Below, piece by piece: positions 1,620-61,812 of a stretch of 64,000 bases of DNA. The DNA comes from a virus. The position numbers and the translations under genes are program-made. Below the pieces are notes generated by a model, which saw only the letters and a list, made by a program, of their open reading frames with translations, did no database searches and was not told where the DNA came from. Each line of letters opens with the position of its first letter. The stretch's first letter is position 1. Where the stretch lies: positions 1-64,000 of the IMG/VR virus record IMGVR_UViG_3300034069_000634; one strand, 5' to 3'.

Positions 1620-2078
1620 ATGGCCGCACCTATCGCTTATTCGTTCAAGGACGTCTCTGCCACGATCAAGGGTCCTGGCGGATCGTTCTCGCTTTCCGAC
1701 CAGGGTGTCGCAGACGAAGGCATCACCGTCGCGATGATCGATGACAAGACCTCGATGGTCACGGGTGCATCCGGCGACGGCATGCACTCGCTCCACGCGG
1801 CGAAGGCGGGTCGCGTCACGATTCGGATTCTTCAGAACTCGCCGAATCGTAAGCGCATCAACGACATGTACAATTTTCAGTCCGAGTCTTCGGCTCGGAC
1901 CGGTCAGAACACACTCATCGTCTCGAATCCGGCCTGGGGCGATGACCACGTCTGCCAGTACGGCGCTTTTGTAAAACAGCCCGATTTTACTAAGGCGAAG
2001 GATGGCGGTATCCTCGAATGGGTACTGAATTTCATCTACGTCGACACAGTGCTCGGAGACGGGTCGCTGGCGACCTAA
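1620..2078 (+). CDS. tail tube protein (DUF3277-like)
   Basis: 152 aa with a GAGGAA SD upstream, directly after the sheath gene. Size and the YSFKDV..GPGG..DEGITV pattern fit DUF3277-type tube proteins. Confidence 0.6.
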   Translation: MAAPIAYSFKDVSATIKGPGGSFSLSDQGVADEGITVAMIDDKTSMVTGASGDGMHSLHAAKAGRVTIRILQNSPNRKRINDMYNFQSESSARTGQNTLIVSNPAWGDDHVCQYGAFVKQPDFTKAKDGGILEWVLNFIYVDTVLGDGSLAT

Positions 2079-2093
2079 TCGAGGGCATCGGCC

Positions 2094-2522
2094 TTGAACT
2101 TCGAGCATGAGTTTACGATCCGGGGCGAGACGTACCGGTGCAAGAAGATGAGCGGGATCGTTCAGGTCCACGTTCTGAAGCGAGCGGGGCCTGCAATTGC
2201 CCCGCTCATCTCTGCGGCGAAGCATGGAATCAGGGACGATCTCGTCGACGAATTGATCACCGGACTGTCGAAGCTTGATGACGAAGCGACCGAGTACGTT
2301 CTGACGAAGTGTCTTTCGGTCGTGACGGTCAAGCGCGATGGCGGATGGCCGAAGATCCTCGCCTCGGTCGATCGGCTGGAGTTCATGTACGACGAGATCG
2401 GCGATGACGCCTATCTCATGCTCGCGATTGCGGTTCGAGTGATGGGGTTCAATTTCGAACCGCTTTTTCGCGAAGCCCTGTCGAGTTTGTCCGACGGGGC
2501 GATTCAGATATCCCTTCGGTAG
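2094..2522 (+). CDS. tail assembly chaperone (gpG-like position)
   Basis: 142-aa ORF between the tube and tape measure genes. A -1 frame stays open from 2408 to 2704. Confidence 0.5.
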   Translation: MNFEHEFTIRGETYRCKKMSGIVQVHVLKRAGPAIAPLISAAKHGIRDDLVDELITGLSKLDDEATEYVLTKCLSVVTVKRDGGWPKILASVDRLEFMYDEIGDDAYLMLAIAVRVMGFNFEPLFREALSSLSDGAIQISLR

Positions 2523-2533
2523 ACTTCGTCTAC

Positions 2534-2704
2534 ATGCCGAACGGAGAGGAGTGGTATTTGAAGCCGATCGATCTCGGCTTCTATACCTACTCCCAGCTTA
2601 AGGACGGCTCGATCTTGATCGAGGACATCGCGGAGATAAACGACTACATTTCCACAGCGAACGAGAACCAGGGGCGCTTGCGGGCGGCGATGAAGAGTGG
2701 CTGA
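2534..2704 (+). CDS. 56-aa ORF in the -1 frame between chaperone and tape measure (frameshift extension or coupled small gene)
   Basis: The translation looks protein-like (MPNGEEWYLKPIDLGFYTYSQLKDGSILIEDIAEINDY..). It is too short for the ORF track. Its stop overlaps the GTG start of the tape measure gene. Confidence 0.35.
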   Translation: MPNGEEWYLKPIDLGFYTYSQLKDGSILIEDIAEINDYISTANENQGRLRAAMKSG

Positions 2705-5174
2705 CAGCGTCCTCAAATCCTATCTCGTCTCGCTCGGATTCAAGGTCCAGGGTGGGAACGAGTTCAAGCGATCCCTCAAGGACTATGAGGACGCGGTCGT
2801 CCGCGCCGAGAAGGCGATCGAGGACGCGCGCTGGGAAGGCGCGAAGACGGCCGACGAGATCGCGAAGCTCACGCGCGAGACGAACCTCAAACTCGCGCGT
2901 GAAGCTCTGGCGAAGGCCCAAGAGACCAAGAAGGCAGAGGACGAACTCGCCAAGAAGCGCAAGGCCGATAACGAAGCCCTGATCAAAGGCTTCGAAAAGC
3001 TCGCGATCGCCGCCCTCGCCGCCGCGACGGCGATCGGCTACGCGATGACGAAGATCGTCGGGTCGTTCGATAACCTGTACTATCAGGCCGAGCGCGCCGG
3101 GACCTCGGTCCAGTCTCTGAAGGCGATCGGCTACGCGTTTTCGCAGACCGGAGGATCGGCACAAGCCGCGCAAGCCTCGGTCGATTCATTCACGACGAAG
3201 ATCCGTAACAATCCCGGCCTCCGGCAGTTTGTCCGTCAGCTCGGGGTCGATGACAAGCTCCAGGGTGTCGACAAGTACCTCGCGACGCTGGAGGCTCTCC
3301 GGAAACAACCGCCCGAGATCGGACACCAGTTCGCCGAGCAACTCGGGATCTCTGAGGAGAGCTTCAATCAATACATGCGTCAGGCCGACGCGATTAAAGC
3401 GTATCGCGCGCAGTATGACGGTCTGCTGAAGTCGTTCGGTCTCGACACTGCGAAGGCCGCAGAGAACTCGGTCGTCTTCGAGCGCGCGATGGGCAAGCTC
3501 CGCGCGACGGTCTCGATTCTCGCCGAAAAGCTTCTTGCCTCACTCGCCCCAGCGATCACCGCGATCATCGACCGCTTTCAAGCGTGGGTCGAGGCAAATC
3601 CCGGCGCGCTCGACAAGATCCTGACGAAAATATCGACGGCGCTTATCGCGGTCGCGGAGGGGATCGCGAAGTTCATTGCGCAGATAACGGGCGATGATGG
3701 CGAAGGATTCATAAAGCGTTGGGATGCATTTATTGGGCGCGTCACAAAGTTCGCCGAGACTGTTGAGCGAGTTGTTTACGGAGTTGAACGTCTTCTTAAG
3801 TTTTTGCATTTCCTTTCCGATACAAACACACCGCTTGGAAGTGCAGATCGTACGATCAAGGCTCTCAACGCAATCTCCGGCGGTACGGCTGCGCCCGACG
3901 CGCCGGGCGGGTTTCGTGCGGGCGGGGCGCAGTCTGCGGCAGAGGGCGAAGACAAGCGGACGTGGCTCCAGCGCAACCTTCCGAAGGCCCTCGGTGGTCA
4001 GGATGCGCCTGGCGCTGGCACGCCGGGAGGTCGGAAGATCAAGACGACCTCGAAAGATATCGATCCGGCAGTCGAGGCCTATATCCGAAAGGCCGCGGCG
4101 GCGCGTGGGATCAACCCAGATACCGCGGTTGGGATCGCGGACGGCGAGGGCCTCGGCGGGTCAACGTATAAGAATCTCACCCCTGGAGACTTCAAGAACG
4201 GTAAGCCGACGAGTTTTGGCCCATTCCAGATGCACCGCGGCGGCCCTGGAAGTGTCGGGACGGAGTACGAAAAGAAGACCGGACACTCCGTCGACGATCC
4301 GAAGTATCTCGAAGAGCAAATCGATTTCTCGCTCGATTGGGCGAAAAAACATGGCTGGGGCGCGTGGTACGGGCGCAAGGCTCATGATATCGGCGTCGGT
4401 GAGGGCCTGAACTGGAATCCGAATGCGCCACCGAGCGACAAGGCCACTCCGGAAGCCGGTAAGCAAATCTCCGGAAATATTGCGCCGACGAATGGCGTCG
4501 GCGGCCTTGAACAGAATCAGGCCGGTGCGACCTATCGGAAACAAGCACTGACCGAGGCGCTTCAAAAGCAACTCGTTGCCGCGGCGAAAGAGACCGGCGT
4601 TAACGTCGATACATTCTCGGGCGGCCAGGATCCCGATCACCAATACGGCAGCACGCGCCACAATCACGGAAACGCGGCCGATCTCCGGCTCTACACGATG
4701 GGCGAGGACGGGAAGCGGCGCTACCTGAACCAGAACAACGAATCCGACCGCGCCATAATGGAGACGTTTCTCCGGAACGCGGTCAAGAACGGCGCGTCCG
4801 GAATCGGCGCTGGCCCCGGCTACATGGGTCCGGAGAAGATGCACGTCGGCGGCGGAACGCCGTCAGCCTGGGGTGCGGGCGGTTCTTCAGCCGCGGCCCC
4901 GGATTGGGTTAAGCGCGCCCTGAAGAACGGGATGGAGGATCGGAAGTCCGGCATTGACGTGAATGCGATGACGAAGCCCGCGACCCCCGCCGGCATCGGC
5001 CCCGGCGCGACATCGACGAATTCGACCGACAATCGCTCGATCACGCAGCACATCGAGAACAAGACGACTGTGACCGGCGTCGACCGACCGGGAGATCACG
5101 CGCGTGTTATAGACTCGACACTCCGCGGGGTTCATCAAATGAGCCTCGCGAACGCTCAGTCCGCGCTCGCGTAA
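2697..5174 (+). CDS. tape measure protein with lysozyme-like and M15-peptidase-like modules
   Basis: 825 aa with a coiled-coil, Ala-rich N-terminal half. GIADGEG..FGPFQM (SLT-like) lies near 4080-4260. STRHNHGNAADL (SxHxxGxAxD, M15-like) lies near 4650-4690. Confidence 0.8.
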   Translation: MADSVLKSYLVSLGFKVQGGNEFKRSLKDYEDAVVRAEKAIEDARWEGAKTADEIAKLTRETNLKLAREALAKAQETKKAEDELAKKRKADNEALIKGFEKLAIAALAAATAIGYAMTKIVGSFDNLYYQAERAGTSVQSLKAIGYAFSQTGGSAQAAQASVDSFTTKIRNNPGLRQFVRQLGVDDKLQGVDKYLATLEALRKQPPEIGHQFAEQLGISEESFNQYMRQADAIKAYRAQYDGLLKSFGLDTAKAAENSVVFERAMGKLRATVSILAEKLLASLAPAITAIIDRFQAWVEANPGALDKILTKISTALIAVAEGIAKFIAQITGDDGEGFIKRWDAFIGRVTKFAETVERVVYGVERLLKFLHFLSDTNTPLGSADRTIKALNAISGGTAAPDAPGGFRAGGAQSAAEGEDKRTWLQRNLPKALGGQDAPGAGTPGGRKIKTTSKDIDPAVEAYIRKAAAARGINPDTAVGIADGEGLGGSTYKNLTPGDFKNGKPTSFGPFQMHRGGPGSVGTEYEKKTGHSVDDPKYLEEQIDFSLDWAKKHGWGAWYGRKAHDIGVGEGLNWNPNAPPSDKATPEAGKQISGNIAPTNGVGGLEQNQAGATYRKQALTEALQKQLVAAAKETGVNVDTFSGGQDPDHQYGSTRHNHGNAADLRLYTMGEDGKRRYLNQNNESDRAIMETFLRNAVKNGASGIGAGPGYMGPEKMHVGGGTPSAWGAGGSSAAAPDWVKRALKNGMEDRKSGIDVNAMTKPATPAGIGPGATSTNSTDNRSITQHIENKTTVTGVDRPGDHARVIDSTLRGVHQMSLANAQSALA

Positions 5175-39570: not shown

Positions 39571-40031
39571 AAATCATCGTCGTCGACCTCGACGGTACGC
39601 TCTGCGACAGCGCGCACCGGGACCATCTCGCGCAGGCGAAGGAGTGGGACCGATTTCACGAAGCCGCGAAGGACGATCAGCCGCGGGAGGATGTCGCGTT
39701 CTTTCTGCGCATGACCGTCGGCCGAATGACTGACGAATTCATGGTCATCGCCTGCACGGGTCGGAACGAGCGCTATCGACAGGCGACCCTTCGATGGCTC
39801 ATCGACAAGGATCTCGCCGTGTTCGATGCGATTCTGATGCGGCCCGATGGCGACTGGCGACCGGACGTCGAGATGAAGCCGGTGCTTCTTCATGAATTCA
39901 TGTCGAGCCTGGACGTCTCGAAAGGTGTCTTTCCGAAGGTCGCCTTCATCCTTGAAGATCGCGACAAGGTCGTCGAGGCGTGGCGGAACCTTGGTTATAA
40001 GTGTTGGCAGGTTCAGCCGGGAGGGTATTAG
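39567..40031 (+). CDS. HAD-superfamily phosphatase (polynucleotide 3'-phosphatase-like)
   Basis: VVDLDGTLCDS (DxDGT) N-terminal motif. 154 aa. Confidence 0.6.
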   Translation: MKIIVVDLDGTLCDSAHRDHLAQAKEWDRFHEAAKDDQPREDVAFFLRMTVGRMTDEFMVIACTGRNERYRQATLRWLIDKDLAVFDAILMRPDGDWRPDVEMKPVLLHEFMSSLDVSKGVFPKVAFILEDRDKVVEAWRNLGYKCWQVQPGGY

Positions 40032-40032
40032 G

Positions 40033-40752
40033 ATGTTGTTGCTTGGTGATTGTCTCGAAGAGATGAAGAAGATTGAATCCGGTTCAGTCGATATGGTTAT
40101 GTGCGATTTGCCATATGGCACTACACAGAATAAATGGGATGAAATTATCCCGCTCAATCTTTTATGGATTGAATACATAAGAATTTGTAAAGGCGCTATT
40201 GTGCTTACATCGCAACAGCCTTTCACCAGCAAACTCGTTATTTCAAACCCATCAATGTTCAAATACGAATGGATCTGGAAAAAGGAGTCCGGTACAGGTC
40301 ATCTTAATGCGAAAAAAGCTCCGCTTAAGGATCACGAAAATATTTTGATTTTCTATAAGGATCAGCCTACGTATAACCCGCAAATGAGAACGGGCTTTAA
40401 GCCGTATAGTTGTAAACAAGGAGCGAAAAAGAGCGAAAATTACGGATCTCAGACAGGGGCGTTTACCGTAAGCGATGGCTCTCGTTATCCTTTAACAACG
40501 ATTGAGTTTTCTCGCGATCGAAACAAAGTTCACCCAACTCAAAAACCTGTCGCCCTCCTTGAATACCTCATTCGAACCTACACGAACGAGGGCGATACGG
40601 CTCTTGATAACACGATGGGATCCGGTTCGACGGGCGTCGCTTGCGCTAATACCGGTCGCAAGTTCATCGGTATCGAGAAAGATCCGGCCTATTTCGCCAT
40701 CGCCGAGCGCCGCATCGCGGAGGCTCAATCTCTCGCCCAGGCTGCGGAGTAA
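40033..40752 (+). CDS. N6-adenine/N4-cytosine DNA methyltransferase (AT-rich island)
   Basis: CDLPYG (DPPY-type) and DNTMGSGSTGVAC (FxGxG AdoMet) motifs. The true ATG is at 40033, inside ORF-track entry 39892..40752. Confidence 0.8.
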   Translation: MLLLGDCLEEMKKIESGSVDMVMCDLPYGTTQNKWDEIIPLNLLWIEYIRICKGAIVLTSQQPFTSKLVISNPSMFKYEWIWKKESGTGHLNAKKAPLKDHENILIFYKDQPTYNPQMRTGFKPYSCKQGAKKSENYGSQTGAFTVSDGSRYPLTTIEFSRDRNKVHPTQKPVALLEYLIRTYTNEGDTALDNTMGSGSTGVACANTGRKFIGIEKDPAYFAIAERRIAEAQSLAQAAE

Positions 40753-42417: not shown

Positions 42418-42432
42418 GAAAGGATACTTGTG

Positions 42433-43077
42433 ATGAAGTTTCCGGTCGACACAATTCCGATGCCGGGTGGATGCATCGCGCAAGAGAAGTTTTACACGAA
42501 ATGGAAAATCAAAACCGGAGAGCCATTAATAAAAGGTCGACCAAAAATAATGTATGAAGGCGAGCAATGGCTCTCCTATAGGCTTAGTTATCACCTCAAC
42601 ATCGCCTGCATCGATCCATATCCGGACCTGAAGTCGGATCAACTCGTCCTTCACAGTTGCGATAACGGATGGTGTATCGCGCCAGATCATCTTCGGCTCG
42701 GGACTCAGACCGAGAACATGATCGATAAATCGGCGCGCAACGAGAACTACCGGGCGACGCGAGGGAAATTCTCAGAAGATGCTTTGCAGCGGATTCGTGA
42801 GGCGAACACCCGACGGAAAGGCGAGAAGCGAAAAGAAGGCTTCTGGCAAACTGAAGAGGGGCGGGCGAAAGCGGGAGAGGCTTCAAAAGCGAGATGGAGC
42901 GATAAAGAAAAAAGAGCTGCAACTATACAAGCAATGAAAGAGCGAGCGGCTTCAGAGCCAGCAAGAAAGAAAATACTCGCCGCACAAAAAGCAAGATGGG
43001 ATAAAGAAGGGTCTAGAGAAAGAGCCTCGTTAAAACTAAAGAAATACTGGGAAGAGAAGCGAGGTAATCTGTCGTGA
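42433..43077 (+). CDS. HNH homing endonuclease (AT-rich)
   Basis: HSCDNGWCIAPDHLRLGTQTENM core. The tail is Lys/Glu-rich and repetitive. Confidence 0.75.
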   Translation: MKFPVDTIPMPGGCIAQEKFYTKWKIKTGEPLIKGRPKIMYEGEQWLSYRLSYHLNIACIDPYPDLKSDQLVLHSCDNGWCIAPDHLRLGTQTENMIDKSARNENYRATRGKFSEDALQRIREANTRRKGEKRKEGFWQTEEGRAKAGEASKARWSDKEKRAATIQAMKERAASEPARKKILAAQKARWDKEGSRERASLKLKKYWEEKRGNLS

Positions 43078-45968
43078 TTCGTGTGAGGTCTGGTTTTAGT
43101 TTTAGGGAAGCCGCGGGCTCGATCGACGACGTCCTCTCTCGGCTCGTCGAGATCGGCGCAAAAGAAGCCCCGATCACGGATCGTGCCAGCACCTTCGGGT
43201 TCTACCGGTGGGACAAAGCCGCGAAAAAGCTCGGACTCCGGCCCGTCTTCGGCGTCGAGCTGGCGGTCACGCCGTCGCTCAACGAGAAGAAGCCGGCGTT
43301 CGACCACACGACCTTCATCGCCAAAGACTCGGTCGCACCGCTGAACCGTCTCGTCGAGACCGCGACGACGCAGTTTCGGTATCGGCCGCTGCTCACCGTC
43401 GAGCAGGCGTTGACCGCCGACGGCGTGTTCAAGATCCTCGGGCATCGCGCCGCGATCGACCGGTACGCGGGCGTGGCCGATACGTTCCTGGCTCTCGGCC
43501 CGTCGACCTCGATGGGTTTGGCGCGGCGCGCGATCGAGCTTGGGATCCCGTTCATCGCCAGTTCCGATAACCGCTATCCGCGTGAATCCGACCGGGGCTT
43601 CTATGAGGTCCTGACCGGCCGGAACGCCGAGACGCAGACGTATCCGCAACACATCCTCTCGGATCTGGAATGGCTCGGCTCGGTCGACCGGCTAAAGCTC
43701 CCGGTCGAGACCCTGTCAGATGCGCTCCGGAACGCCGAGAACGTCCGCGCCGGGTCGACGGCTATCCTGACTCAGGCGAAGCTCCTCGCGCCTCCACGGC
43801 CCGCTACGCTCTACGATATGTGTGTCGAAGGAGCCGAGGCCCTCGGGATCGATCTTCTCGATCAGACCTACGCTGCACGCCTGGACCGGGAACTCTCGCT
43901 GATCGAGGCGAAGGCGTTCGAGGACTATTTCTACATCGTCGCGGACCTGTGCCAGTACGCCCGCTCGGAGATGATCGTCGGGCCGGCGCGTGGGTCGTCG
44001 TGCGGTTCGCTCGTGTGTTATCTCTTGCGGATTACGACTATCGACCCTATTCCTTACGGTCTAATCTTTGAGAGGTTTATCGACGTCAATAGATCCGACC
44101 TCCCAGATATAGACGTAGACTTCAGCGACCAGCAACGCTACAAGATCTTCGATTACCTGAAGGCGAAGTACGGCACGGAGCGCGTCGCCCGTCTCGGGAC
44201 GGTCGCGATGTTCAAGCCGCGCTCGGCCTTGCAGGAATGCGGCGCCGCGCTCCGCGTGCCGCGGTTCAAGACCGATGCGGTCGGCGAGTCGCTCGTCTCG
44301 CGGCCGGACGGCGACGCCCGCGCCCTGAAGATCTTGGAGGACACGTTCGACGGCATCCCGGCCGGCAAGGCACTGATCGAGACCCATCCAGAGATGCGCG
44401 TCGCGACCCGGTTCGAGGGACATCCCAGGCACGCCGGACAGCACGCCGCAGGCGTGGTGATCGCCGAGCGGCCGGTGATCGAGATCGTCGCGATCGACCG
44501 CCGGACCGGGGCGACAATGTGCGACAAGCGCGACGCGGAGGACGGTTACGGGCTCCTGAAGATCGATGCGCTCGGCCTGACGCAGTTGTCGGTGTTTGAG
44601 CGGGCGCTGGAACTGATGGGGATCGGGCGCGAACAGGCGCTCGGGTTCCTCGACGCGCTGCCGCTCGACGACCCGGCCGCGTACCAGATCCTCAACGACG
44701 AGAAATGGTCGGGGATCTTTCAGTTCAACGGCGCCGCGCTCCAGGGGATCACCAAGCAATTCGAGGCGTCCCGGTTCGAGGACGTCGTGACGATCACGGC
44801 GCTCGGTCGTCCGGGGCCGATGATGTCGGGCGGAACGCAGGCCTGGATCGACCGGCGCAACGGCACGAGCCCTGTCACGTACCCGCACCCGATGTTCGAG
44901 CCGCTCTTGGCGGAGACGCTCGGCGTGCTCGTGTATCAGGAACAGGTGATGGCGATCGGCCGTGAGGTCGGCGGCCTGTCCTGGGCGGATGTGACAGCGC
45001 TCCGGAAGCTCATGGCGAAGACCATGGGCCAGGAGGCGCTCGGAAAGTACGCCGAGCCGTGGAAGGCGGGCGCGATCGAGAACGGCCTCGACCCTCTGGT
45101 CGCCGACAAGGTCTGGAACGACCTCGTGACCTTCGGCCAGTACGGTTTCAACAAGTCGCACTCAGTGGCTTACGGACTCGTCTCGTACTGGTGCTTGTGG
45201 CTTAAGGCGCACCACCCGTTCGAGTTCGCCGCGGCTACCCTGTCGTTCGAGCCGGACCCGGACAAGCAGATCAAGATGCTTCGCGAGATGCGCGACGAGG
45301 GCATCGAGTACGTGCCCGTGGACGCTGAGACCTCGACCGAACTCTGGGAGGTCGGATCGAAGGATGGGAGACGCGTGCTCGTCGGGCCGTTGTCGGGCGT
45401 GAAGGGGATCGGGCCGAAGATGATCGGCGACATCCTCGGGCGCCGCGCGCGCAGGGAGCGTCTGACCGACCGACAGGCGAAACTCCTCTCGGATCCGAAG
45501 ACGGCGATCGATTCGCTCTGGCCGATTCGTGACGCGTTTGCCCGGATCATGCCGGATCCGGCCGCGCGCAACATCCACACGGCCCCGACGCAGATCGGCA
45601 CGATCACGATCGAGGACAAGGACCGGACGGTCCTCGTGTTCTGCGTGCTCGCGAAGATCACCGTCTCGAACGAGAACGCACCGGACAAGGTCGAGCGGCG
45701 CGAGGGGCGGGTCTACGACGGACCGATCACGGCGCTCAATCTTCACCTTGCCGACGACACCGGAACGATCTTCGCCAAGATCAGCCGGTACGATTACGAG
45801 GAACTCGGCCAGCCGGTGATCAACCGCGGTCGGGTCGGGAAGGCGCTCTACGCCGTCAAGGGCGTGATCTGGGGCGCGGACGACTTCAAGATGATCAGCG
45901 TCAAGGCGATCCGATACATCGGCGACGTCGGTGATGACGTCGAGTTTTTGGTTCAGGGAGGAGAATAA
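43074..45968 (+). CDS. dnaE: DNA polymerase III alpha-like (DnaE-type) replicase
   Basis: 964 aa with motifs GPARGSSCGSLVCYLLRIT, PDIDVDF, HAAGVVI and FNKSHSVAY. The N-terminal PHP histidines are not evident. Confidence 0.8.
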   Translation: MIRVRSGFSFREAAGSIDDVLSRLVEIGAKEAPITDRASTFGFYRWDKAAKKLGLRPVFGVELAVTPSLNEKKPAFDHTTFIAKDSVAPLNRLVETATTQFRYRPLLTVEQALTADGVFKILGHRAAIDRYAGVADTFLALGPSTSMGLARRAIELGIPFIASSDNRYPRESDRGFYEVLTGRNAETQTYPQHILSDLEWLGSVDRLKLPVETLSDALRNAENVRAGSTAILTQAKLLAPPRPATLYDMCVEGAEALGIDLLDQTYAARLDRELSLIEAKAFEDYFYIVADLCQYARSEMIVGPARGSSCGSLVCYLLRITTIDPIPYGLIFERFIDVNRSDLPDIDVDFSDQQRYKIFDYLKAKYGTERVARLGTVAMFKPRSALQECGAALRVPRFKTDAVGESLVSRPDGDARALKILEDTFDGIPAGKALIETHPEMRVATRFEGHPRHAGQHAAGVVIAERPVIEIVAIDRRTGATMCDKRDAEDGYGLLKIDALGLTQLSVFERALELMGIGREQALGFLDALPLDDPAAYQILNDEKWSGIFQFNGAALQGITKQFEASRFEDVVTITALGRPGPMMSGGTQAWIDRRNGTSPVTYPHPMFEPLLAETLGVLVYQEQVMAIGREVGGLSWADVTALRKLMAKTMGQEALGKYAEPWKAGAIENGLDPLVADKVWNDLVTFGQYGFNKSHSVAYGLVSYWCLWLKAHHPFEFAAATLSFEPDPDKQIKMLREMRDEGIEYVPVDAETSTELWEVGSKDGRRVLVGPLSGVKGIGPKMIGDILGRRARRERLTDRQAKLLSDPKTAIDSLWPIRDAFARIMPDPAARNIHTAPTQIGTITIEDKDRTVLVFCVLAKITVSNENAPDKVERREGRVYDGPITALNLHLADDTGTIFAKISRYDYEELGQPVINRGRVGKALYAVKGVIWGADDFKMISVKAIRYIGDVGDDVEFLVQGGE

Positions 45969-55044: not shown

Positions 55045-55497
55045 ATGCCCGGCGGCGGACCCCTTCGCTATCGCGTGGAATACTGCGATCTCCTCGAAGA
55101 GAAGATGGCGGAGGGATTCTCCATGACCGCGGTAGCCGGCCTGATCGGCGTCGCGAAGAACACCCTGTGCTACTGGGTGAACCATTACCCGGAGTTCAAG
55201 GAGGCGGTCGAGCGTGCCAAGTCGAAGCGCCTCCTCCACTGGGAGAAGATCGCGCTCGATATCGCCAAGAACGGCGGTCCGGGCTCGCGCGCGACGATGA
55301 CCACGTTCGGCCTCCGGAACGTCGGCATGGGCGAATGGAGCGACCTCCAGCGCCAGGAGATCTCCGGCCCCGACGGCGGTCCGATCAAGACCGAGACGAC
55401 GAGCGCGCGAGAGCTTCTCGCGGCACGGCTCGCTCGATTAGCACCTTCTTCAGAGTCTGGAGAAAACGAATCCGATTCTGAAGAAGATAACAAATGA
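55045..55497 (+). CDS. terS: terminase small subunit
   Basis: HTH (MTAVAGLIGVAKNTLCYWV..YPEFKEAVERAK). Its position upstream of TerL supports the call. Confidence 0.7.
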   Translation: MPGGGPLRYRVEYCDLLEEKMAEGFSMTAVAGLIGVAKNTLCYWVNHYPEFKEAVERAKSKRLLHWEKIALDIAKNGGPGSRATMTTFGLRNVGMGEWSDLQRQEISGPDGGPIKTETTSARELLAARLARLAPSSESGENESDSEEDNK

Positions 55498-56072
55498 CTT
55501 GTTTAATCGAAGGCTGTGAGAACAAGACTATCGCTCGTGGCCTTTGCTCTTCTCATTATCAAAGATTAAGAAAATACGGGTCCCCATTCGGGGGTCGTCC
55601 GACGTTTGTCGGAGAAATAAAGGAATATTTATATAATTTTGTTCTCCCGTACGAAGGAGAAGACTGCATCATTTGGCCCTATTCAATTCATAGAGGCCGA
55701 GCATATATGACTTTAAAAGGTAGATCCAATATAGCGGCCAGAATTATTTGTGAAGAGACTCAAGGATTTCCCCAAGATTCAAATTTAGATGCGGCTCATT
55801 CTTGCGGTAATAAAATATGTGTAAACCCAAATCACATTCGTTGGGCAACAAGAAAAGAAAATGAAGCCGATAAGATAATTCACGGTACAAAAAATCAAGG
55901 AGAAACGGTTTGGAATTCTAAACTGAGAAAAGAAGACGTTTTAAAAATATTGCAATTAAAGGGAGAAAAGACCGGAGTTGAAGTAGCTAGGTATTTTGGC
56001 CTTCATCCGACGACGGTTCGGATGATTTGGCGAGGCAAGAGATGGGCGCACTTATCTCAAATCGCTCCTTAG
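55494..56072 (+). CDS. HNH homing endonuclease (AT-rich) between terS and terL
   Basis: AAHSCGNKICVNPNHIRWATRKEN core. The ATGA overlaps the terS stop, and the 3' end overlaps the terL start. Confidence 0.75.
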   Translation: MTCLIEGCENKTIARGLCSSHYQRLRKYGSPFGGRPTFVGEIKEYLYNFVLPYEGEDCIIWPYSIHRGRAYMTLKGRSNIAARIICEETQGFPQDSNLDAAHSCGNKICVNPNHIRWATRKENEADKIIHGTKNQGETVWNSKLRKEDVLKILQLKGEKTGVEVARYFGLHPTTVRMIWRGKRWAHLSQIAP

Positions 56073-58225
56073 CTCAGAACGTCGCGGCGCTGTCGAAGGA
56101 AGATCGCGACCGGATTCTCGCGAAGCTGACGAAGGATCAGTCCGAGGAACTCCTCTATGACTGGAAATTCTGGGCGCGCCCGAATCAGCTGGCGCCGCCC
56201 GGCAACTGGATGACGTGGCTCGCGCTCGCCGGGCGCGGGTACGGCAAGACGGAGGCCGGCGCTCAGTGGGTCCGTGACGAGGTCGCGAAGGAGACTCATA
56301 CGATCGCCCTAGTCGCCGAGACCCAGAAGGATCTTGAAGAGGTCATGGTCCGGCGCCTGATCTCGATCTATCCGCCTGACGAGGCTCCGATCGTTCGATA
56401 CAAGCCCGTCCGCCTCGTGTGGCCGAACGGTTCCGTCGCGTACGGCTATAACGGGACCGAGCCGAATCAGCTTCGCGGTCCGCAGTTTTCGTTGGCCTGG
56501 GTCGACGAATTGGCGAAGTACCGCTACGCCCGAGAACTCTGGGACATGCTCATGTTCACGATGCGGTCGGGGACGAACCCGCGCGTGTTCGTGACGACGA
56601 CCCCTCGCCCGATCCCGGTCCTCCGCGAGATCATTAAGGATCCGACGACGACCGTTACGCACGGATCGACCTTCGACAACGCTGGAAACCTTCCTGCGCA
56701 ATTCCTTGAAAAGCTGAAGGCTCGATACGCCGGGACCCGTCTCGGCCGCCAGGAACTCAACGCCGAGATCCTTGATGACACCCCCGGCGCGCTCTGGGAC
56801 CGCGACGTGATCGAGAAGGCCAACGCGAAGCGCACGATCCCCGACATGAAGCGGGTCGTCGTTGCGGTCGATCCGTCCGGCACCCGCGGCGAGAACGAGG
56901 ATGACGGCGATGCGATCGGAATCGTCGTTGCGGGCAAGGGCGTGGATGGCCGTGCCTATGTGCTCGCCGACCGGACGTGCAAGCTGTCGCCGAACGGATG
57001 GGCTCGCCGCGCCGTCGACGCGTACCGGGTGTTCCAGGCCGACCGCATCGTCGCCGAGACGAACTACGGCGGCGCGATGGTCGAATCGACGATCCGCACG
57101 GCCGATCCGAAAGTACCCTATACCGAAGTCAAGGCGTCTCGGGGTAAGGTGATCCGCGCCGAACCAGTCGCCGCGCTTTACGAGCAGTGCGTCGCCGCCG
57201 GGACGTTGATCGCTTGCGAGCGTGGACAGATACCGATTGAGGCAGTTCGAGAAGGCGACCGTGTTTGGACGCGGGCGGGCTTAAAGCCCGTCCTTTGGGC
57301 GGGTCAAACCGGCGTGCAAAAAACCATTCAAATCGAAGCCTCTGGGAAAATTCTTAGGCTGACTGAAAATCATCCGGTTCTCACGACGGATGGATGGATC
57401 CATGCTGGACAACTTGCTCATAAAGAGCGTACCGTCTTCGCATGGCGATCAAATGCGAACTTTGTGAAGCGCCCATTAGCGTTCGAAAAGGTCGAACGCT
57501 CTGTCGATCGTGCGGCGCGCTTCGACGATGGCAGAACAACCCTCGACCGGCTAAGAGGGCTTTTGTCGAGTTTGAAGGGCTGCGCTACTATCGACAGCCA
57601 GACGGCTATTGGCGGGCCTCTCGCCATGGCGGGAATGAACTCCTGCATCGAGCCGTCTGGAAATCGCATCATAAAAAGCCGATCCCTGATGGATGGCATG
57701 TCCATCACAGAGACGAAGATCCAGGGAATAACGACCCTGAAAACTTACTTGCGATGCCTCACGGAGAACATTCTCGACACCATCACCCGAATGGCCTCAA
57801 GACCATTGGACGGACAAAGGTCTGCGCCGAATGCGAAAAAGATTTTTTCGCGGTTTGGGGTCGGCAATGGATATGCTCCGACGAGTGTCGACGTGTGCGA
57901 CACGCCCGAGAGGAGCGAGAGCGTCGAGCCCGTGTTCAACCTTCATGTTGCGGATCAGCATGAGTATGTCGCAAACGGCATTCTCGTGCATAACTGTCGC
58001 GTGAGCCACGTTCAGCCGTTCGACGAGCTTGAGGACGAGATGTGCCAGATGACGCGCGACGGGTTCACTGGTGAAGGATCGCCGAACCGCGTCGACGCGC
58101 TCGTCTGGGCGCTCACCGAACTCATGCTCGATGAGCAGAAGCGCGAGATCAGGTTTACCCCTGAGGCGATCCAGCGCCTCGCGCCGTCGAAGCCGAACCG
58201 CTTCGCGATAGGACGCCGCCGATGA
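56027..58225 (+). CDS. terL: terminase large subunit interrupted by an intein (exteins 56027..57187 + 57995..58225)
   Basis: LAGRGYGKTEAGAQWV Walker A, and AWVDELAK. The C-terminal ALYEQ|..|CRVSH is split by the intein. The start is ATG 56027 or 56042. Confidence 0.85.
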   Translation: MARQEMGALISNRSLAQNVAALSKEDRDRILAKLTKDQSEELLYDWKFWARPNQLAPPGNWMTWLALAGRGYGKTEAGAQWVRDEVAKETHTIALVAETQKDLEEVMVRRLISIYPPDEAPIVRYKPVRLVWPNGSVAYGYNGTEPNQLRGPQFSLAWVDELAKYRYARELWDMLMFTMRSGTNPRVFVTTTPRPIPVLREIIKDPTTTVTHGSTFDNAGNLPAQFLEKLKARYAGTRLGRQELNAEILDDTPGALWDRDVIEKANAKRTIPDMKRVVVAVDPSGTRGENEDDGDAIGIVVAGKGVDGRAYVLADRTCKLSPNGWARRAVDAYRVFQADRIVAETNYGGAMVESTIRTADPKVPYTEVKASRGKVIRAEPVAALYEQCVAAGTLIACERGQIPIEAVREGDRVWTRAGLKPVLWAGQTGVQKTIQIEASGKILRLTENHPVLTTDGWIHAGQLAHKERTVFAWRSNANFVKRPLAFEKVERSVDRAARFDDGRTTLDRLRGLLSSLKGCATIDSQTAIGGPLAMAGMNSCIEPSGNRIIKSRSLMDGMSITETKIQGITTLKTYLRCLTENILDTITRMASRPLDGQRSAPNAKKIFSRFGVGNGYAPTSVDVCDTPERSESVEPVFNLHVADQHEYVANGILVHNCRVSHVQPFDELEDEMCQMTRDGFTGEGSPNRVDALVWALTELMLDEQKREIRFTPEAIQRLAPSKPNRFAIGRRR
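57188..57994 (+). mobile_element. Hint-type intein (269 codons) in terL
   Basis: Cys1 (CVAAGTLIA), block B (LTENHPVLT), and a C-terminal GILVHN followed by Cys+1. Confidence 0.8.
57442..57963 (+). CDS. HNH endonuclease encoded in the -1 frame inside the intein
   Basis: 173 aa with two CxxC zinc ribbons and an HVHHRDEDPGNNDPENLLAMPHGEH core. The frame differs from terL. Confidence 0.7.
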   Translation: MAIKCELCEAPISVRKGRTLCRSCGALRRWQNNPRPAKRAFVEFEGLRYYRQPDGYWRASRHGGNELLHRAVWKSHHKKPIPDGWHVHHRDEDPGNNDPENLLAMPHGEHSRHHHPNGLKTIGRTKVCAECEKDFFAVWGRQWICSDECRRVRHAREERERRARVQPSCCGSA

Positions 58226-59856: not shown

Positions 59857-60089
59857 GCAAGAAGTGGAAGCCGATTGCGTCCGCTCCGAAGGATCCGACC
59901 GTTTACATCGACCTTTGGATCGTTGGACCGAGATCCTCAGAAGGGTATCGACAGGCCGATTGCCATTGGTCCTTGCACGACAATCGATTTGTCACGGAAT
60001 ACGGCCACATGGGCGATATTCCCGCCGGATTGATGATCGGAGACGAGCCGACACATTGGATGCCGATTCCTAGCGGTCCTGATCAATGA
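59853..60089 (+). CDS. DUF551-like protein
   Basis: WKPIASAPKD...THWMPIPSGP pattern. Confidence 0.5.
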   Translation: MSKKWKPIASAPKDPTVYIDLWIVGPRSSEGYRQADCHWSLHDNRFVTEYGHMGDIPAGLMIGDEPTHWMPIPSGPDQ

Positions 60090-60904
60090 CGTACCACGAT
60101 CCGAAGGCCGTCTACGCCCGAGCCCGCGCCAAGCGCGCTCCGCGGCCTCGAATCGCCCAGGATCGCGGGACGCTCTCGCCCCGTTCGGCGCTGAAGCGCG
60201 CGAAGCGGCTCGAAACGCAGTACGCACAGCGGCTCCGCGGTATCGCGCGCACGATCGGCCACATCGTCGCCGGTTACGACCTCTCGAACCTCGCGACCGC
60301 ATCCCCGGCGATCGTCTCGGCGCTCCGTCGCTACGCCGATGTCCTCCGGCCATGGGCGCGCGTCGTCGGGCAACGGATGATCGCCGAGGTCGGCGTCGCC
60401 GACCGGACCGGCTGGCGCAAGATCGCCGCCGAGATCGGTCGCCCGCTCGCGCGGGAGATCGCCGATGCCCCGACCGGCCGCGCGACCCAGGAAGCGCTCG
60501 AACGACAGGTGACGCTCATCACCTCCATCCCGACCGACGCGGCCGAGCGCGTCCACAAGCTCACGATCGACGGCCTCGCCAAGGGCAAGCGCGCCGATGA
60601 GATCGCCGCGGAGATCATGAAGACCTCGGACGTCTCGAAGGCGCGGGCGAATTTAATTGCCTCCACAGAAATTAGTCGAACGGCAACTGAATTTACAAAA
60701 GCTCGTGCTTTGCACATTGGTTCTACTCAATACATCTGGAGAACTTCTAATGACAGTGACGTTCGACCTGACCACAAAGTTCTTAACGGCAAAGTATTCG
60801 ACTGGAGTGATCCTCCAATTGCTGATAGAAGAACAGGAGCAAGGGCTCATCCGGGATGTATCTACCGATGCAGATGTTATCCAGAGCCAATAATTGTTGA
60901 ATAG
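60086..60904 (+). CDS. head morphogenesis protein (Mu F / SPP1 gp7-like)
   Basis: WRTSNDSDVRPDHKVLNGKVF..HPGCIYRCRCYP. The last ~250 nt are AT-richer. Confidence 0.75.
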   Translation: MTYHDPKAVYARARAKRAPRPRIAQDRGTLSPRSALKRAKRLETQYAQRLRGIARTIGHIVAGYDLSNLATASPAIVSALRRYADVLRPWARVVGQRMIAEVGVADRTGWRKIAAEIGRPLAREIADAPTGRATQEALERQVTLITSIPTDAAERVHKLTIDGLAKGKRADEIAAEIMKTSDVSKARANLIASTEISRTATEFTKARALHIGSTQYIWRTSNDSDVRPDHKVLNGKVFDWSDPPIADRRTGARAHPGCIYRCRCYPEPIIVE

Positions 60905-60990
60905 GATAGAAGCAAGACTATAAATAACAGGCCGACAAAGTGCGTCAACACCGTGCCGGCCCTAACCAAGCGAACAGGGTGAATGTTCAA

Positions 60991-61812
60991 ATGGCTGTAG
61001 AATACATTCCATACCAAGGGCCGGTTGTCACTCGAGAAAAAGCCCTATCTGAAAACCTCAAATGGTATTTTACGGGCGTCCCTTGCAAACATGGACATGT
61101 TTCGCTTCGAAGAGTGACAACGAGATCGTGTCAAGGGTGCGGTGAAGTTTTCTTACAAGAGCTTCGGAGTCACACAGCAAAAACAAAAGCGTTTAAGCCA
61201 CTTACCGCTCGACAAATCGCGCTTAACAATGGAGAATTAAGATATTTTACGGGGATTTCTTGTACAAATGGACATATATCCGAGAGGTTTGTAAATAGTC
61301 GAGCCTGTGTAGTTTGCATGGCTGAAAAATCAAAAGAGATTCCTAAGCAAATTAAATCCTCTTACAGCGCTAAACATCGATCTCTACATCCCGAAAAATG
61401 GAAAGAAACTCTTGAGCAATTTCGAATGCGTCATCGGATTCGGAGAAATGCCGAAGCACGAGAAGCCTATGCTAAAAATTCAGAAAAGGGTCGAGCCCGC
61501 ACAAAGCAATGGAGAGAACGCAATCCAGAAGGGGTTCGTGCTCATGCCATGACGCGATGGGCAAGAAAGAAGGGGTCATCAGGATCTTATACGGTAGAGG
61601 ATATCCGGTTCTTATTTGAGGCTCAGAAAGGACGCTGCATTAACTGCTTGGCTTCGTTGAATGAGGCGTATCACGTTGATCACGTACAACCATTGTCGCG
61701 GGGCGGGCTGAACGTTCGATCGAATCTTCAGTTATTATGCCCGCCATGCAACTTGAGCAAACACGCTCTCGACCCGTTCGAATGGGCTCAACGCAATGGC
61801 CGTCTCCTTTAA
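60991..61812 (+). CDS. HNH endonuclease with repeated Zn-finger modules (AT-rich)
   Basis: YFTG.PC..GH.S.R.V..R.C..C occurs twice. C-terminal HVDHVQPLSRGG..NLQLLCPPCNLSKH. Confidence 0.75.
   Translation: MAVEYIPYQGPVVTREKALSENLKWYFTGVPCKHGHVSLRRVTTRSCQGCGEVFLQELRSHTAKTKAFKPLTARQIALNNGELRYFTGISCTNGHISERFVNSRACVVCMAEKSKEIPKQIKSSYSAKHRSLHPEKWKETLEQFRMRHRIRRNAEAREAYAKNSEKGRARTKQWRERNPEGVRAHAMTRWARKKGSSGSYTVEDIRFLFEAQKGRCINCLASLNEAYHVDHVQPLSRGGLNVRSNLQLLCPPCNLSKHALDPFEWAQRNGRLL

Follow-up and report, generated by a model that had tools for sequence, protein, structure and literature searches.

The large terminase gene (terL) in positions 1-64,000 of the IMG/VR virus record IMGVR_UViG_3300034069_000634 (the whole 64-kb stretch analysed here, referred to as the window) is interrupted by an intein whose own reading frame contains no recognisable endonuclease, and the question raised by this locus is where the nuclease of such an intein is encoded and how two reading frames can be maintained in the same DNA. 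The favoured answer, which is considered very probable, is that a mobile class-1 intein resides in terL and that the homing endonuclease belonging to it is the product of an HNH_3 gene of its own, which is overprinted on the intein linker in the -1 frame. The architecture and the pattern of selection are regarded with high confidence.

The terL gene, intein included, occupies 56042..58225 on the plus strand and is identified by Terminase_6N (E=1.4e-23) and Terminase_6C (E=1.4e-10), between which the Pfam matches to Hint_2 and Intein_splicing are located. The open reading frame (ORF) extends from a TTG at 56027 to 58225 and corresponds to 732 amino acids; the true start is likely the ATG at 56042, giving 727 amino acids, because the JGI database protein P0007 (727 amino acids) is identical to the TerL of the window and relatives begin with MGAP. 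The intein (57188..57994, plus strand) comprises 269 codons placed after ..AEPVAALYEQ, and it is recognised by Intein_splicing, by Pfam Hint_2 at 38.5-39.8 bits (cut-off 28.4) and by NCBIfam intein_Cterm at 25.9 (cut-off 15.6). The nucleophile of block A is Cys1 in CVAAGTLIACERG, the TxxH motif of block B is LTENHPVLT, and the C-terminal end ..EYVANGILVHN supplies the His-Asn pair of block G and is followed by the Cys+1 residue at 57995-57997. In an AlphaFold2 model of the intein read in the terL frame, residues 1-99 and 244-269 form a confident Hint fold. The N-terminal splicing domain with blocks A and B (57188..57441, plus strand, terL frame) has a block-mean pLDDT (the predicted score in the local distance difference test) of 64-95 over residues 1-99, and the C-terminal splicing domain with blocks F and G (EPVFNLHVADQHEYVANGILVHN; 57920..57994, plus strand) reaches 72-93 from about residue 244. 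Residues 100-243, the linker (57485..57916, plus strand), all fall below 50. The linker gave no domain match in a Pfam search, so the in-frame endonuclease that characterises canonical bifunctional inteins is absent, and no stop interrupts the terL frame within the intein, so the host gene is not split as in fractured genes. An earlier note, drawn from the sequence of the window, had described this intein at the same position and length, with the same splicing residues and with a filler-like, stop-free linker devoid of endonuclease motifs, and the description is borne out in each of these respects. The same is true of its remark that the intein DNA is AT-richer, as the guanine-plus-cytosine (GC) content is 0.50-0.58 in the intein and 0.62-0.68 in the flanks.

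The exteins rejoin, as that note expected, into a normal terminase string. The intein-less relatives P0008 and P0009 read ALYEQ/GRVTHVQPFDELEDE at this site (the slash marks the junction), and the empty alleles L097 and L009 read ..YEQ/GRV.. at the exact junction of the window intein, the surrounding sequence in L097 being ..TATGAGCAG/GGTCGCGTC... At the DNA level the empty site is ..TAY GAG CAG/GGY CGN GT.. and the window has ..TAC GAG CAG, the intein, and then TGT CGC GTG... Since the empty alleles match across the junction, the insertion in the window is precise and in frame. Protein splicing of the intein is predicted from the intact catalytic residues, the confident Hint model and the essentiality of terL. 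Counted from ATG 56042, the spliced TerL would have about 458 amino acids; the spliced reading proposed earlier is thus retained, and the size of 463 amino acids given with it is revised on account of the likely start.

The second frame of the same DNA holds the nested gene. A putative HNH_3 homing endonuclease of 173 amino acids is encoded at 57442..57963 on the plus strand, in frame +2 (= -1) relative to terL, with its ATG at intein nucleotide 255. It matches Pfam HNH_3 (PF13392) with E=3.4e-12 and 46.3 bits (cut-off 24.8) and contains an N-terminal CxxC..CxxC ribbon, an HVHHRD..NN..N..H core and a C-terminal CAEC..CSDEC ribbon, so that the 173-residue HNH protein with two Cys ribbons announced by the earlier note, and the hidden Markov model searches of both frames which it recommended, lead to the same result: Hint_2, Intein_splicing and intein_Cterm in the terL frame and HNH_3 at -1. 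In alignment A1 of the HNH family, residues H88, H89, D93, N97, N101 and H110 are invariant, and the family-invariant residues, including the Cys ribbons, are all kept in the intact ORF of the window. The upstream limit of the ORF is set by an HNH-frame TAA at 57424..57426 (plus strand; three-frame translation), six codons ahead of the ATG, and its 3' end (..LQPSR, then the stop) overlaps intein block F (VYNLHVE), which needs the terL frame. A large protein search returned P0001, an HNH protein of 169 amino acids that is 71% identical to the nested one, and the AlphaFold2 model of the HNH-frame protein has a mean pLDDT of 80.5. The assignment as a nuclease is suggested by Pfam HNH_3 together with the conserved H/N/H residues. 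Ten other nested copies match HNH_3 at 39-57 bits, and all nested nucleases tested belong to HNH_3; Endonuclease_7 was not matched by the window HNH at E<=1 or by the ten other copies at E<=0.01.

The two frames are not constrained in the same way. Substitutions were counted by terL codon position in 60-nucleotide bins among six alleles at the same site. Up to 57397 the most variable position was terL position 3 (fraction differing 0.59-0.69); over 57398-57937 it was terL position 2, which is position 3 of the HNH codons (0.43 in the first, transitional bin and 0.54-0.67 from 57458 on); and from 57938 it was again terL position 3 (0.52-0.62). Pairwise substitution counts agree with this switch, and over the linker DNA the identity between alleles is 46-70% in the HNH frame versus 26-41% in the terL frame. 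Therefore, it is the HNH protein that is selected in the middle of the intein, and the terL frame there is merely kept free of stops. The view that both frames are constrained over about 0.5 kb holds for the HNH protein and for the openness of terL; it does not extend to the amino acids of the terL-frame linker, which are unconstrained (identity 26-41%, pLDDT below 50).

The layout is shared by many relatives, whose DNA was taken for comparison from contigs of JGI, ENA, Logan and NCBI assemblies. Ten related metagenomic contigs (L001-L007, L009-L011) combine a terL frame that stays open across the intein with an HNH ORF at -1. The intein occupies the ALYEQ/C site of the window in L001, L002, L004 and L005, the Walker-B site in L007, L009 and L011, and a third site in L010, and a high-GC relative, L006, has Ser at +1. 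One terL, in L003 (= L017; 646-3516), carries two inteins, at the Walker-B and ALYEQ sites, each with its own -1 HNH, and these two ORFs (1302-1829 and 2805-3302) belong to different subfamilies. A tblastn search of deposited phage genomes revealed the open-terL layout in Rhodobacteraceae phage LS06-2018-MD07, Tetrasphaera phage TJE1 and Acinetobacter phage Highwayman (40% GC, with a host frame free of stops and a third frame containing 26), a fractured, split-intein version with a homologous HNH in Vibrio phage 1.245.O (L015), and a homologous HNH in an intein-less DNA methylase insertion of Cylindrospermopsis phage Cr-LKS3. The comparison of intein-containing and intein-less alleles, another check that had been proposed, thus gave a precise insertion and the same -1 layout in relatives, and the conserved layout together with the frame-specific selection supports the proposal of a free-standing type of endonuclease gene nested in the intein.

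When IMG/VR was scanned with the HNH alignment, 274 relatives emerged, and the genomic context was counted for the best 80 loci: 62 are nested at -1 in a much longer ORF, 1 is nested at +1, 17 are non-nested and 0 are in the host frame. In viral metagenomes, most members of this HNH clade are therefore found in this arrangement, which is common in environmental phage terminase genes. Removal of redundancy leaves 48 sequences in the nested set, which form 46 clusters at 60% identity and 10 at 40%, and the HNH is at -1 in 47/48 and at +1 in 1/48. An intein C-junction directly follows the HNH in 40/48 by pattern search, and the other 8 have a similar ..N/C or ..N/S ending by eye. The insertion sites vary; the host ORF matches Terminase_6N in 31 cases and Terminase_3 in 10, and some hosts have no terminase match. 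The sole +1 case, L072 (HNH at 1152-1712 in a host ORF at 2-1948), was checked by eye and is an HNH_3 in a terL intein (MDA/CFSGDTLV ... IVSHN/CRYAF), which demonstrates that +1 nesting is possible. In L043, L071 and L080, nested -1 HNH inteins were observed at a shared junction, ..N/SLRNAAMRFGVALDLW, unlike the terminase sites of the other loci.

The openness of the terL frame was compared with several references. Over the 174 HNH codons of the window there are 0 stops in the terL frame and 9 in the third frame. All nested copies have 0 stops in the host frame (HNH+1) and 3-26 in the third frame (HNH+2), so that the idea, raised earlier as a possible refutation, of stops in related alleles betraying an accidental openness finds no example among the nested copies examined. 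The split Vibrio copy L015 has 14 stops in the host frame and 24 in the third, the free-standing relatives of the nested HNH family have 2-15 and never 0 in HNH+1 and 3-30 in HNH+2, and the free-standing HNH of the window at 55494..56072 has 15 and 12. The last of these, which is unrelated to the nested family, shows no bias between the two frames.

The nearly constant -1 phase requires a separate explanation. General codon usage does not account for it, as the 61 long open frames of the window, some of which are probably not genes, are equally rich in stops in the +1 and +2 frames (0.0235 vs 0.0236 stops per codon). Among free-standing relatives (the non-nested among L026-L096; 11 non-redundant loci), 57 stops were counted in +1 versus 131 in +2, about 2.3 times fewer, and this scarcity may either have favoured nesting at -1 or be left over from a nested ancestry. 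The simplest account of the phase is common descent of the composite of Hint and HNH, and the methylase case of Cr-LKS3 is likely one further independent -1 example. The ShiLan domain (PMC11855218) and the 'frame 3' of actinophage inteins (bioRxiv 10.1101/2025.01.02.630785) are, from their descriptions, consistent with -1. A broader proposition, which is possible and is put forward tentatively, is that for a large HNH_3 clade the -1 overprint on the intein linker is the normal, long-lived and selected state, and that its near-universal phase has a mechanistic or structural cause and does not follow from descent alone. It is suggested by the 62 nested loci among the best 80, the 46 clusters at 60%, the several terL families and sites involved, and the absence of any in-frame case. 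An elongated HNH with several zinc ribbons, if in frame, might part the Hint halves, which a disordered off-frame read-through can link; an HNH+1 frame that is intrinsically poor in stops, as the free-standing relatives suggest, may also contribute. If this proposition is true, many terL genes from metagenomes have been annotated wrongly, and endonuclease genes use overlapping coding as a general strategy for colonising inteins.

The distribution of the intein is that expected of an active homing element, being sporadic and discordant with the exteins. The closest terL, P0008 (84% identical), has no intein, and P0009, which is the closest relative on a long contig, lacks one at the ALYEQ site but has one at a different site. 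Between the window and L001 the extein, Hint and HNH identities are 52%, 72% and 70%; between the window and L003 they are 67%, 52% and 54%; and between L002 and L005 they are 61%, 72% and 59%. The Hint and HNH identities co-vary and disagree with those of the exteins, which fits homing as one unit, and the lower GC of the intein is also counted in favour of mobility. In homing-cycle theory the endonuclease decays after fixation. The nested HNH of L001 (1897-2406) contains a single premature stop (..GLNYY, stop, QPDGYW) in an otherwise conserved ORF whose terL frame is open; it has apparently been inactivated recently, as the homing cycle predicts, or alternatively the stop may be a sequencing error.

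According to the favoured explanation, ribosomes translating terL would read through the linker and produce about 145-160 unselected, disordered residues between the Hint halves. Association of the halves would then lead to splicing, in which the intein is excised and ..ALYEQ is joined to CRVSHV.., so that TerL is functional. Separately, and probably at a low level, the 173-residue HNH protein would be translated from the same late mRNA, with ATG 57442 as an internal start. In a mixed infection it would cut or nick an intein-less terL at or near the empty-site sequence given above, and repair from the intein-containing allele would copy the Hint and HNH parts together. As to initiation, the HNH ATG lies at intein nucleotide 255 in the window, L001, L002, L004 and L005 and at nucleotide 258 in L003, and HNH-frame stops occur shortly upstream of it in 4/6 alleles (window, L001, L003 and L004), in L003 as a TAG four codons before the ATG. 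Across the family, an ATG precedes the catalytic motif in 53/59 nested HNHs, at a median of about six codons past the upstream stop, and a Shine-Dalgarno-like 4-mer is present at -17..-4 in 31/53, compared with 23% of random host windows. The conserved ATG, the upstream stops, the lack of a slippery heptamer (X XXY YYZ) in the 15 nucleotides between the HNH-frame stop and the ATG of the window, and the overlap with block F argue for independent initiation and against frameshifting.

Several points weigh against the favoured explanation. The HNH start of the window has only a weak Shine-Dalgarno sequence, aaagag at -20..-15, and a sigma-70 consensus scan found no promoter-like site on the plus strand upstream of it; low-level expression is the most that these signals allow, its manner and amount being uncertain. 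When the HNH model was compared with the PDB by Foldseek for the beta-beta-alpha-metal fold of solved HNH nucleases, nothing reached E<=0.001, the E values for I-PpoI and McrA being about 3; PDB sequences searched with an HNH profile yielded zinc fingers only and no significant solved nuclease. The terL frame was open in 30% of synonymous-codon shuffles of the window HNH. This frequency arises because the codon composition of the HNH is already adapted to avoid terL-frame stops, so shuffling is a weak significance test for the window and the free-standing relatives are the better null. The window copy could have become inactive recently with no sign of it in the sequence. Moreover, splicing, independent translation, cleavage specificity and homing activity are all deduced from sequence and models.

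The alternative that survives best is that the HNH ORF is a decaying or dead relic, unexpressed, and that selection acts only on the openness of the terL frame, terL being essential. The premature stop in L001, where the terL frame is open, the lack of a clear ribosome-binding site in the window and the decay expected after fixation would all suit a relic. It is judged unlikely, as the third-position type of variation in the HNH frame, among alleles 30-50% apart in protein, points to long-term purifying selection; besides, the ORF of the window is intact with its invariant residues (H88, H89, N97, N101, H110 and the Cys ribbons), the HNH model is confident, and Shine-Dalgarno-like signals are enriched across the family.

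Programmed -1 frameshifting, by which the HNH would be made either as a fusion with the N-extein and the N-terminal Hint part or, after a double shift, as part of an in-frame bifunctional intein, would explain the -1 phase in 47/48 non-redundant viral cases and in all deposited examples, and in TJE1 the HNH frame is indeed open far upstream. This explanation is very improbable, however: the TAA six codons before the ATG of the window is followed by no slippery heptamer, L003 has its TAG four codons upstream, ATG starts with Shine-Dalgarno-like motifs are common, L072 has its HNH at +1, and, because of the overlap with block F, ribosomes that returned to the terL frame at the HNH stop would miss part of the C-terminal Hint domain. 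An A6 run at 57318-57323 was considered as a slip site and rejected, since HNH-frame stops lie downstream of it.

A further alternative is that the nested HNH is a packaging accessory, situated inside terL for co-expression. HNH genes next to terminase genes are a known part of some packaging machines, for example in HK97-like cos phages, and the host gene of the nested copies is nearly always terL. Nevertheless, the HNH is found only where the intein is, and P0008, as well as P0009 at the ALYEQ site, lacks both and is presumably functional; the Hint and HNH identities co-vary in discordance with the exteins, the same HNH family occurs in the methylase insertion of Cr-LKS3, and some nested hosts have no terminase match, all of which makes a packaging role still more improbable than frameshifting. 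As for a sequencing or assembly artefact, two compensating indels near 57440 and 57920 (in principle one base in 57427-57442 and another near 57900-57925) could fuse the frames and hide an in-frame bifunctional intein, but this is effectively refuted by the recurrence of the out-of-frame layout, which is present in deposited phage genomes and in over 60 independent contigs originating from a variety of projects and assemblers and so excludes paired sequencing indels, and also by the HNH ATG at nucleotide 255 in five of six alleles (258 in L003), the HNH 3' end overlapping block F in the terL frame, the absence of homopolymers at the junctions and the 0 of the best 80 viral relatives in frame.

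The general arrangement of an out-of-frame endonuclease hidden in an intein or in a phage methylase insertion has already been described, in 2025-2026 and by one group, in three papers of the Gogarten laboratory (bioRxiv 10.1101/2025.01.02.630785; bioRxiv 10.64898/2026.09.14.751524; PMC11855218), and the statement in the earlier note that no such case was known is outdated. Out-of-frame endonucleases in actinophage inteins were reported by Gosselin et al. (2025; bioRxiv 10.1101/2025.01.02.630785), who found the in-frame linker unstructured, proposed that a free-standing endonuclease gene had invaded the intein, and called the architectures rare; terL is one of the genes in which the non-canonical inteins, taken together, are found. 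The window resembles these cases in the placement of the endonuclease ORF, which lies between the splicing blocks and shares their strand, in frame 3 (= -1; their Figure 3D) with the host frame open, and in combining a linker of pLDDT below 50 with an alternative frame that folds (HNH pLDDT 80.5). It differs in the nuclease, which is HNH_3 and not endonuclease VII-like (IPR004211), and in its host lineage, which looks alphaproteobacterial and is not in PhagesDB. The closest cellular terL matches are from Methylobacterium, Pararhizobium, Zhengella and Mesorhizobium, and in the tblastn search of deposited phages with the window HNH no actinophage except Tetrasphaera phage TJE1 was among the named groups listed. 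Unlike the rarity stated in the preprint, the arrangement is the majority context for the HNH clade of the window (62 of the best 80).

Frame-specific selection on an out-of-frame LAGLIDADG endonuclease in a cyanobacterial dnaX intein, itself called a rarity, was described by Phillips, DeSimone and Gogarten (bioRxiv 10.64898/2026.09.14.751524). That intein is attributed to Gorbalenya (1998), as cited, and its endonuclease lies on the anti-sense strand according to the 2025 preprint (bioRxiv 10.1101/2025.01.02.630785). It shares with the window a disordered in-frame region, frame-specific selection and a sporadic distribution that is discordant with the exteins, whereas its endonuclease is LAGLIDADG and its host gene cellular, as against an HNH in a phage terL. 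The paper by Arsenault, Gosselin and Gogarten (Genes 2025; PMC11855218) describes the ShiLan domain and Pacc40 gp60, methylase insertions which hide an out-of-frame HNH. They are comparable in that the HNH is out of frame in an insertion open in the host frame and the host-frame loop is disordered, and the translation of the hidden ORF is likewise posed there as a question. Those insertions are without a Hint or splicing domain and the loop stays in the mature protein, unlike the linker of the window, which would be removed by the predicted splicing. A ShiLan-like case in a cyanophage was observed in Cr-LKS3 (L016, OM373202), where a methylase insertion at 1977-3827 without Hint motifs hides a -1 HNH_3 ORF.

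In the fractured genes of Dassa et al. (2009; PMC2677866), too, the endonuclease is an ORF of its own in the endonuclease position of the intein; there the host gene is interrupted and trans-splicing takes place, whereas the host frame of the window is continuous and cis-splicing is predicted. The Vibrio phage L015 (NC_055736), with 14 host-frame stops and separate 'terminase' and 'hint domain protein' coding sequences, resembles those fractured genes. Within 2471-3461 of this genome the N-terminal part of terL with the N-terminal Hint domain stops at 2609, the HNH spans 2471-3205 and the 'hint domain protein' coding sequence lies at 3144-3461; the same terL also has an apparent upstream in-frame intein of LAGLIDADG type, judged from motifs alone. 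With canonical bifunctional inteins (Dalgaard et al., 1997, as cited), the window has in common that the endonuclease is located between blocks B and F and that the homing biology is presumed to be alike. It departs from them in that its HNH is a separate polypeptide in another frame, and 0 of the best 80 relatives are in frame. What is new here is that the arrangement is the majority context for an HNH clade, almost always at -1 and with Shine-Dalgarno-like signals enriched. Also new is the coexistence of fractured (L015), decayed (L001), double-intein (L003) and intein-less (Cr-LKS3) states.

With this locus, the inteins known to have an overlapping endonuclease gene extend to a second nuclease family, HNH_3, which is unrelated in sequence, and to a lineage outside the actinophages, and the locus supports the view of intein evolution in which splicing comes first and the endonuclease invades later. 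The switch in codon position is a clean natural example of dual coding, with one frame selected as protein and the other only open, and the locus is usable for the study of internal out-of-frame initiation inside a highly expressed late gene. Overlapping coding also defeats standard gene callers, which often take terL or the HNH and not both. In L005 (GCA_016716835.1, JADJUW010000006.1; 2580-4790) the NCBI record of the metagenome-assembled genome calls the HNH and not the stop-free terL stretch of 737 amino acids, and in L007 (3225-5813) only the C-terminal third of terL is called.

The window phage has at least 4 HNH or His-Me nuclease genes, the nested HNH included. Immediately upstream of terL and overlapping its start, a low-GC ORF (0.35-0.46) of 192 amino acids at 55494-56072 on the plus strand matches HNH_3 and zf-His_Me_endon; it resembles a free-standing homing endonuclease gene but could also be a packaging HNH. 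Between a Mu-F-like head morphogenesis gene (60086-60904) and the next structural gene, a low-GC ORF (about 0.46) of 290 amino acids at 60940-61812 (plus strand) has a C-terminal match to the classical HNH domain (PF01844, E=3e-11) and is probably another mobile endonuclease gene. A low-GC His-Me finger ORF of 215 amino acids (42430-43077, plus strand; zf-His_Me_endon E=3.5e-6 and a weak HNH_3 match) lies just upstream of the DNA polymerase III alpha gene (43074-45968), and a low-GC N6/N4 DNA methylase is encoded at 39892-40752 on the plus strand.

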